Shown: positions 62,277 through 62,460, counted from the first letter of the stretch. The stretch is 64,000 nt of DNA from Rickettsiales bacterium (GCA_040221415.1 JAVKEN010000024.1:9715-73714), one strand, 5' to 3'. Notes: generated by a model not told the origin, from the sequence alone. Numbers and translations are program-made.

Positions 62277-62440
62277 ATGGACTGCGGGTCGGGGCCCGGA
62301 GTGACGTCCGGTGGCGTGTAGAAAGTTGGGTATGGACTCTGGATCAAGTCCGGAGTGACGTCCTGGGGGTGGTTAGGTGACAATGGATTCCCGGTCAAGC
62401 CGAGAATGACAACGGGGGATGAAAAACACAAAAAAAAAGG
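62277..62440. repeat. three tandem GC-rich ~51-55-bp units, each with a hairpin resembling a tRNA T-arm
   Basis: Units start at ATGGACT (62277), ATGGACT (62332) and ATGGATT (62383). Unit B reads cTCTGGatcaagtCCGGAgtgacgtcc. About 60% GC in a roughly 35% GC background. Confidence 0.85.
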
Positions 62441-62460
62441 GATGTATTAACGCCCCTTTT
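62431..62460 (-). terminator. weak candidate intrinsic terminator of the repeat-protein gene
   Basis: Minus-strand RNA would read aaaaGGGgcguuaauacauCCCuuuuuuuuu: a short GC stem extended by A:U pairs and followed by a U-run, 8 nt after the stop. Confidence 0.3.

Follow-up and report, generated by a model that had tools for sequence, protein, structure and literature searches.

Escherichia coli BIMEs are GTAG-type REPs with RAYT transposases, and Rickettsia palindromic elements (RPEs) are noted for inserting themselves in frame within coding sequences. CGTC-tagged REPs carry an unpaired CGTC (variants TGTC or CCTC), a stem of 8-9 bp with A-T pairs at positions 1-2, and a tail CCA (Di Nocera, De Gregorio and Rocco 2013, BMC Genomics 14:522, PMC3733652). 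Their loops have 4 nt in family 1 and 5 nt in families 2-4; CGTC-1 is the Neisseria dRS3 repeat, and the R. conorii elements RPE-6 and RPE-4 correspond to CGTC-1 and CGTC-4, respectively (PMC3733652). They occur mainly in Alphaproteobacteria, including the obligate intracellular Wolbachia and Rickettsia, in intergenic DNA between unidirectional or convergent ORFs, and have no dedicated transposase (PMC3733652). Most form inverted (HH) dimers; head-to-tail pairs are negligible and clustering is rare except in Neisseria and Wolbachia. REPs are generally placed behind ORFs, and their G.T pairs have been read as an indication that the repeats are transcribed (PMC3733652).

These hairpins were given the new names NTS, written CGTCATTCCCGCGMAVGCGGGAATCYRG, and Ssn-related motifs (SRM) in 2025, when a partner enzyme was described: SsnA, a small GIY-YIG nuclease, binds the motif as single-stranded DNA (ssDNA) and cuts the DNA alongside, as do homologues including one from Wolbachia (Chenal et al. 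2025, Nat Commun 16:2388, PMC11893778). An ssn gene is a small single-domain GIY-YIG (cd10448) gene, typically flanked by the motif, and the SRM search string given for such motifs is HGTCWYN(0-2)YYVSBRHN(0-5)WNVSBRGN(0-2)RNCYNB (PMC11893778). In Neisseria, dRS3/NTS repeats modulate recombination of incoming DNA and form recombination joints around variable genes (PMC11893778).

We analysed a 64,000-nucleotide stretch of DNA (the window), which is C24:9715-73714 of a 1.39-Mb, 26-contig assembly of roughly 35% G+C (C numbers denote contigs; other positions are those of the window). Homologues of its LigA that bear names come from Rickettsiales or Alphaproteobacteria MAGs at 52-55% identity, and the tmRNA of the genome is two-piece; both mark the organism as an uncultured, Rickettsiales-type alphaproteobacterium. 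The ORFs of the locus run in the order pepP, ligA, an orphan, the cytochrome b561 gene, two paralogous GHDWT repeat-protein genes, a fragment, two Sel1-like genes, dksA and tyrS. Repeats are set between them: a copy of a second repeat, X, and REP units A-C between the cytochrome b561 gene and the first GHDWT gene, REP unit D between the two GHDWT genes, one REP behind the second GHDWT gene, two behind the fragment, and one between the Sel1-like genes and dksA. The array A-C thus occupies the convergent intergenic space between the cytochrome b561 gene and the first GHDWT gene. The features in the window are as follows.

61327-61857, plus strand: cytochrome b561 gene (Pfam PF01292, E 1.4e-24), convergent with the GHDWT gene.
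62199-62275, no strand assigned: copy of the dispersed repeat X, about 77 bp, abutting the REP array; blastn finds 7 further copies at 78-85% identity (from alignment).
62278-62306, minus strand: REP unit A; CGTC, stem ACTCCGGG, loop CCCCGA, stem CCCGCAGT, tail CCA (sequence and palindrome scan).
62333-62360, minus strand: REP unit B; CGTC, stem ACTCCGGA, loop CTTGA, stem TCCAGAGT, tail CCA (sequence and palindrome scan).
62384-62411, minus strand: REP unit C; TGTC, stem ATTCTCGG, loop CTTGA, stem CCGGGAAT, tail CCA (sequence and palindrome scan).
62418-62460, minus strand: intrinsic terminator of the GHDWT gene; hairpin AAAAGGGG...CCCCUUUU followed by a U-run (folding and paralogue alignment).
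62468-63775, minus strand: GHDWT repeat-protein gene, 435 aa, tandem 22-residue GHDWT repeats (ORF list, 66-bp tandem period); its 3' end faces the REP array.
63936-63962, minus strand: REP unit D, decayed; hairpin TCCGGA-TCAAG-TCCGGA (63940-63956) intact, then AGTGAC.
63963-64000, minus strand: U-run and 3' arm of the terminator of the next paralogue; hairpin GGGGCAGATTAACCGCCCC and the gene beyond the window end.

An initial reading of the window from its letters (the sequence-only reading) had described three units downstream of the repeat-protein gene and a fourth upstream, each with a hairpin at the same position. Both observations are borne out by sequence and covariance model: units A-C lie head-to-tail at 62278-62411 and a damaged fourth, D, at 63936-63962, the hairpin has the same position in each, and within the full 64 kb of the window a model built from the copies in this genome matches these four places and no others (E 5.7e-12 to 0.01). 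Successive ATGGA starts (62277, 62332, 62383) are 55 and 51 bp apart, and each is followed by the palindrome and then TGAC. G+C is 0.49-0.56 over 62250-62449 versus 0.23-0.30 in the DNA to the left. The description of the units as tandem repeats of about 52 bp was right about the repetition, but what recurs is a 28-nt core separated by variable spacers rather than a clean 52-bp unit, and Tandem Repeats Finder made no call at 62278-62411.

Read on the plus strand, unit A has stems ACTGCGGG (62281-62288) and CCCGGAGT (62295-62302) around the 6-nt loop TCGGGG, with one stem mismatch, and matches the covariance model over 62275-62307 (38 bits, E 2.7e-10). Unit B has stems ACTCTGGA (62336-62343) and TCCGGAGT (62349-62356) around TCAAG; a single stem position is A.C on the minus strand and G.T on the plus strand, and the model match spans 62330-62361 (42.7 bits, E 5.7e-12). 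The stems of unit C, ATTCCCGG (62387-62394) and CCGAGAAT (62400-62407), also enclose TCAAG and have one mismatch (match 62381-62412, 40.4 bits, E 3.7e-11). A near-twin of unit C lies just past dksA, outside the window and in the same orientation (C24 77574-77606, 32/33 nt identical). The local copies are thus slightly decayed, with one stem mismatch each in A, B and C and the tail missing from D. In unit D, the 5' TGGA has become TGC, the tail side reads ATGCTCC where ATGGACTCC is expected, an extra A stands ahead of GTGAC, and the tag is ATGTC; the model matches it in part (63940-63956, E 0.01). Over 63 nt it is 92% identical to C24 75243-75304, the copy that follows the third paralogue.

Hairpin-encoded peptides are a known source of spurious hypothetical proteins. 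The mechanical ORFs at 62267-62431 and 63831-63983, both on the minus strand (54 and 50 aa, ...DVTPDLIQSP... and ...DVTSGLDPE...), are hairpins translated in this way, as is the apparent N-terminal extension of the next paralogue (VFLSHVVTSGLDPES...).

Because a copy of X abuts the REP array, the locus is a mosaic of two repeat families. X (TTAGACGTAATT..TTTTTACAATA..GATAGGTTAATACCCCC) recurs at C24 125893-125970 and 126653-126718, C11 11135-11214, C14 17786-17850 and 22617-22708, and C22 13500-13550 and 58591-58649. It is always on the same contig strand and adjoins a REP array in at least four loci; in three loci a GC hairpin stands ahead of it and reads as an opposite-strand terminator, and Rfam has no match to X. 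X may correspond to the 'RS'-like partner in a mosaic of the NIME type, or else represent a small 3'-UTR/sRNA module. Two further arrays occupy the AT-rich spacer behind the cytochrome b561 gene: three 32-bp tandem units with the palindrome GGTAAAC(T)n..TTTAC(C) at 61868-61963, followed at 62013-62185 by five or six copies of AAATTTTT(n)AGTCAG. Units resembling the GGTAAAC ones are also present at C7 3778-3869, and this GGTAAAC/AAATTTTT spacer array looks like a set of putative protein-binding sites.

The sequence-only reading had pointed to copy number and covariation as checks on its hairpin, and both speak for a genuine family. A combination of blastn, palindrome scan and covariance model reveals about 45 units at 18 sites (45 model matches in the genome), usually in mosaic clusters of 2-8 units; the further copies found by blastn and palindrome scan are on C3, C11, C14, C15, C16, C22 and C24. 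Every one of the 39 strictly scanned units consists of TGG, an 8-bp stem, a 4-6-nt loop and the stem complement. The plus-strand layout is TGG, an 8-bp stem beginning with A, loop, complementary stem, and GAC(G/A); on the other strand, CGTC or TGTC and a final CCA enclose a hairpin whose 8-bp stem begins with A(T) and whose loop has 4-6 nt. The tag is CGTC in 23 of these 39 units, TGTC in 10, CATC in 4 and another sequence in 2, and loops have 4 nt in 9 units (GTTC, CTAC), 5 nt in 21 (TCAAG) and 6 nt in 9 (TCGGAG, TCGGGG, TCGTAG). The hairpin is well supported by the aligned copies: stem pairing is found in 96% of cells among 34 distinct units, versus 75% in shuffles and 29-46% in slid controls, and six of the eight stem pairs show compensatory, both-sided changes (e.g., TTCCGGG/CCCGGAA, TGCCGGA/TCCGGCA, CCCTGAA/TTCAGGG and CCCTCGA/TCGAGGG). 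Stem pair 1 is A-U in 34/34 units; pair 2 is U-A in 23, C-G in 8 (including A and B) and U-G in 2. TGG, the complement of CCA, is invariant in all 34 aligned units and is damaged in D.

All 18 sites are intergenic, though crude ORF calls cover about 93% of the genome. No unit at these sites lies inside a credible gene, and the only overlaps are with spurious ORFs or start extensions that translate the hairpin. Flanking ORFs are unidirectional at 12 sites, convergent at 2 and divergent at 3, and one site is at a contig edge (14 of 17 classifiable sites are therefore unidirectional or convergent). Orientation alternates in other clusters, for example +-++-+-+ on C11. With respect to strand polarity, the main subtype (stems yyCCGGr/CCCTsrA) places its CGTC-first strand on the G-rich strand at 16/16 loci on 7 contigs, and on C3 both REP unit orientation and GC skew are flipped; the TCCTGGC-GTTC subtype has the opposite polarity in 10 of 11 cases. 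This polarity is confounded with gene orientation; the C15 and C16 loci, which are flanked by plus-strand genes, keep the skew-related orientation.

Related hairpins extend far beyond this genome. The 26-mer GGAYNCCGGRTCAAGYCCGGNRTGAC was found at more than 120 loci, in more than 120 species from many phyla, in a scan of 185,579 species genomes, for which we calculated a chance expectation of about 0.07 matches. The matches listed include Sphingomonadales, Ramlibacter, Desulfobacterales, Patescibacteria, Dehalococcoidia and Nitrospirota, and are usually paired with an inverted GTCAT-hairpin-ATCCAG unit. The published SRM string does not match A, B, C or D; it has 13 matches in the genome, 11 of them REP units, versus a shuffle mean of about 2. 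These 11 are mostly of the 4-nt-loop subtype, and the near-twin of C is among them (C24 77576-77604).

Based on anatomy, copy number and the covarying stem, we conclude, with a probability of roughly 88%, that units A-D are copies of the already described CGTC-tagged REP family (i.e., NTS/Ssn-related motifs, in a superfamily that includes RPE-4 and RPE-6): small, non-autonomous, GC-rich palindromes between genes, likely orphaned, and not fragments of tRNA. Of the three interpretations that the sequence-only reading had offered, a REP-like element family was thus right for the units themselves. A structured sRNA gene, a CRISPR-like array and an attC-like array were each considered as readings of the units and rejected.

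Another of the three interpretations took the copies for att-like repeats derived from a tRNA 3' end. In this view, they would be tRNA or tmRNA 3'-end att sites, the traces of an integrative element that had brought in the repeat-protein cassette. The context has some of the expected look. Near-identical REP units, both pointing the same way, stand at the two ends of a 5.5-kb island that comprises two GHDWT paralogues, the fragment and two Sel1-like genes. In one relative (G007) this island is missing between dksA and ligA, which are about 0.5 kb apart there. The ligA-dksA interval is free of REPs in all of seven relatives; together with the missing island in G007, this indicates that island and hairpins are lineage-specific. 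The resemblance to a T-arm, however, is a string match restricted to B and D, in which CCGG-ATCAAGT-CCGG stands against CCGG-TTCAAGT-CCGG of tRNA-Leu(UAA). When we compared the units with the 34 tRNAs and the tmRNA of the genome, none matched any unit beyond the hairpin, the best match being 13 nt between D and the tRNA-Leu(UAA) T-arm. The comparison with tRNA-Leu(UAA) gave no acceptor-strand match and no CCA, and only one of eight unit/strand comparisons beat 99% of shuffles.

The sequence-only reading had also seen a 7-nt T-loop in these hairpins, and this part does not stand. Positions 54 and 60 of the would-be T-loop are Watson-Crick partners that covary (A-U in 13 units, G-C in 12 and C-G in 6), and the loop is therefore one of 4-6 nt. 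Rfam was searched with the whole window at its gathering threshold and with 61800-64000 at E <= 10; all matches were at chance level, and no tRNA was among them. The same unit is present at 17 other sites, none of which adjoins a tRNA gene. Inspection by eye of the ORFs in a region reaching from about 6 kb ahead of the array to 12 kb beyond it revealed no integrase, nor did Pfam in the eight nearest ORFs (window 60364 to dksA). We therefore reject the units as pieces of tRNA: the likeness ends at the hairpin, the loop positions covary, and Rfam gives no tRNA match. An origin as att sites is, on the same grounds, very improbable.

The remaining interpretation held that the copies are a conserved 3' module of paralogous minus-strand genes that continue past position 64,000. 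The DNA there does contain a paralogous repeat-protein gene: an ORF of the same 22-residue repeat type lies at C24 73752-75284 (minus strand), with a C-terminal fragment beyond it. The GHDWT protein has no Pfam family above cut-off. An alignment of the three paralogous 3' flanks runs through the stop codon, the terminator hairpin, the T-run and one REP unit, and the terminator and the REP unit were therefore duplicated along with the gene. The 3'-module interpretation accordingly describes the terminators and the local picture correctly, but the REP units themselves belong to the wider family.

The terminators also account for what had appeared to be shared coding sequence. We confirmed that CGGGGGATGAAAAACACAA(A/T)AAAAAAGGG is common to units C and D, as had been noted; the common part (GGGGGATGAAAAACACAA...; CGGGGGATGAAAAACACAA...AAAGGG) is complementary to the minus-strand terminators, namely to their U-run and 3' arm. 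The plus strand of the first terminator, GATGAAAAACACAAAAAAAAAGGG, had been assigned to unit C. Another suggestion was that a plus-strand gene (MKNT(K/I)KKG...) begins at D, its 5' end having been duplicated at C, and an ATG with similar codons is indeed present at both. The D frame, MKNTIKKGQINRPSS, nevertheless stops after 15 codons inside the terminator, the ORF list has no plus-strand ORF of at least 40 aa starting at C or D, and the sequence is the complement of a terminator U-run common to three minus-strand genes. We reject this reading, in which we have next to no belief. The RNA fold of the first terminator (62425-62475, minus strand) has a free energy of -10.2 kcal/mol (z = -1.95) and a core of 3 G.C pairs. 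A consensus terminator scan (loop <= 8) missed the GHDWT terminators because their loops exceed 8 nt.

The weakness of this terminator (3-G.C-pair core, z = -1.95) bears on whether the units act as RNA, either as 3' UTR stem-loops of the minus-strand genes that block 3' exonucleases or as a backup for a weak terminator, and would have been retained on that account. The units lie 8-50 nt past the terminators of three paralogues, a position that agrees with the general placement of REPs downstream of ORFs; the reading of G.T as a sign of transcription (PMC3733652) would apply to unit B on the plus strand. On the other hand, the units come after the terminator U-run, where most transcripts should already have ended, and the whole array folds no better than shuffles (z = -0.21 and -0.31 for the two strands). 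Copies are also found in three divergent intergenic regions, and the syntenic interval of the relatives does without such units. Hence, an RNA role appears unlikely to us, and because the units lie beyond the U-run and the array folds like shuffles, any function as an extra 3' hairpin would be secondary.

We next consider the CGTC-tagged REP reading with respect to a partner enzyme. A search for RAYT (PF01797) gave no match in the genome and matches in 6 of 14 control genomes, and searches of the genome for IS110 and DUF559 were negative. The only GIY-YIG domain in the genome (PF01541) is in a 616-aa frame of UvrC length. We looked for an ssn remnant by tblastn and with a profile from the relatives' Ssn-like proteins, and found nothing at E < 0.01 in the genome. 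With no Ssn-like gene in the assembly, the ssDNA-nuclease mechanism cannot currently operate from it.

Relatives of this genome give a different picture. Across 40 genomes they have between 0 and 94 REPs, and those with more small GIY-YIG genes tend to have more REPs (Spearman 0.74; hand-tabulated and ignoring phylogeny). Each of the 10 REP-rich relatives (at least 15 hairpins) carries at least one small GIY-YIG gene, and in one relative (G010) single REP-type inverted hairpins stand on both sides of such a gene. The tyrosine-tyrosine-glutamate spacing of these small proteins, 11 and 47 residues, equals that of SsnA Y6, Y17 and E64 (PMC11893778). No NCBIfam model matches them, and a PDB search with them found only UPF0213 BH0048 (E 1.3e-4). 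The genome studied here is the sole REP-rich member of the relative set without a candidate partner gene. Either the partner gene has been lost and the repeats are relics, or the gene is in an assembly gap; some repeat clusters do lie at the ends of contigs, for example at the start of C3.

Beyond the relatives, an Ssn-like gene lies within 8 kb at 2 of 120 REP-bearing loci of other phyla, in both cases 14-30 nt from hairpins, which is a weak test of association. Ssn-like GIY-YIG frames 14-60 nt from REP units of this type were also seen in the relative G018 (C8:10341-10651) and in Sphingopyxis witflariensis (L078, 1218-3169). The latter has two Ssn-like genes, each between inverted hairpins; in G018 the GIY-YIG match falls within a 1609-aa open frame.

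How did the array arise? One REP unit may have settled immediately after the intrinsic terminator of an ancestral GHDWT gene. Joint duplication of this gene with its terminator and the REP would then have yielded unit C, unit D and the third copy outside the window, and units A and B would have joined the array at the first paralogue. According to the literature, the hairpin forms in ssDNA, and in other bacteria Ssn binds it and cuts the adjacent DNA, a reaction thought to be linked to spread. The units here may be orphaned selfish repeats that mark, and perhaps helped to create, the joints of an effector-like gene island. Because the assembly has no partner enzyme, the copies are most likely orphaned relics, serving at most as passive extra 3' hairpins or recombination sites.

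Similar surroundings recur elsewhere in the genome. A mazEF pair outside the window (C24 125731-126810; PemK_toxin E 1.3e-26, MazE_antitoxin E 2.1e-6) has REP clusters together with X repeats on either side, a layout like NTS-gene-NTS in Neisseria. The REP clusters at C14 11988-12065, 17601-17749 and 22489-22838, C22 58638-58783 and C3 52-138 abut ankyrin-repeat genes and capsid, portal and baseplate-hub genes of a phage-type, GTA-like cluster.

One could also imagine that the roughly 45 CGTC hairpins are kept and oriented without a known partner, being used as ssDNA at the replication fork by host machinery alone, as joints at which cassettes of effector genes are inserted and duplicated. The CGTC-first strand of the main subtype is on the G-rich strand, presumably the lagging-strand template, and in several accessory islands (GHDWT/Sel1, mazEF, ankyrin genes and GTA-cluster gaps) almost every gene has hairpins on both sides. 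We regard such use as a speculative and rather doubtful proposal, and prefer to see the copies as relics of the CGTC-tagged REP family.

This assignment clears up a false lead, as the tRNA-like look of the units is coincidental and they belong to a family known since 2013 with a partner enzyme known since 2025. The novelty is limited: this is another set of copies of a known REP superfamily, here in a Rickettsiales-like genome. That such a genome holds many hairpins and no Ssn, against 10/10 REP-rich relatives with a candidate gene, bears on whether Ssn is needed for the repeats to persist. In addition, the hairpins border effector-like islands, as dRS3/NTS do around Neisseria variable genes, and so offer practical markers of accessory DNA in such symbionts.

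A comparison with the described systems places the units as follows. They agree with CGTC-1 and CGTC-2 (PMC3733652) in tag, 8-bp stem with an A-T first pair, CCA, intergenic placement, the lack of a linked transposase and an alphaproteobacterial setting. The loops fit the published 4-5 nt in part, with 6-nt loops in 9/39 strictly scanned units, including A. The units differ from published CGTC REPs in having C-G instead of T-A as the second stem pair in 8/34 distinct units, including A and B. The units here are also mostly clustered, and the window array is formed by three units in the same orientation, unlike the usual arrangement of CGTC REPs; such arrangements are tendencies in organisation and do not define the family by sequence. 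E. coli BIMEs are set apart by their GTAG-type REPs and by RAYT, which is absent here. With RPE-4 and RPE-6 (Ogata et al. 2002) the units share membership in the CGTC superfamily and the form of GC-rich palindromes in an AT-rich, reduced genome, but RPEs are noted for in-frame insertion into genes, whereas 0/18 sites here are inside a gene. Unlike in the Neisseria Ssn system, no small GIY-YIG protein is encoded in this genome, although hairpin counts in its relatives do track such genes. The units nonetheless resemble Neisseria dRS3/NTS in the hairpin layout of CGTCAT, palindrome and ATCC..., in the repeat-gene-repeat clusters around variable or accessory genes, and in belonging to a type of repeat enriched in symbionts (Rickettsia, Wolbachia). 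Finally, as in Neisseria intergenic mosaic elements (NIMEs), the hairpins alternate with a second repeat, which here is X.
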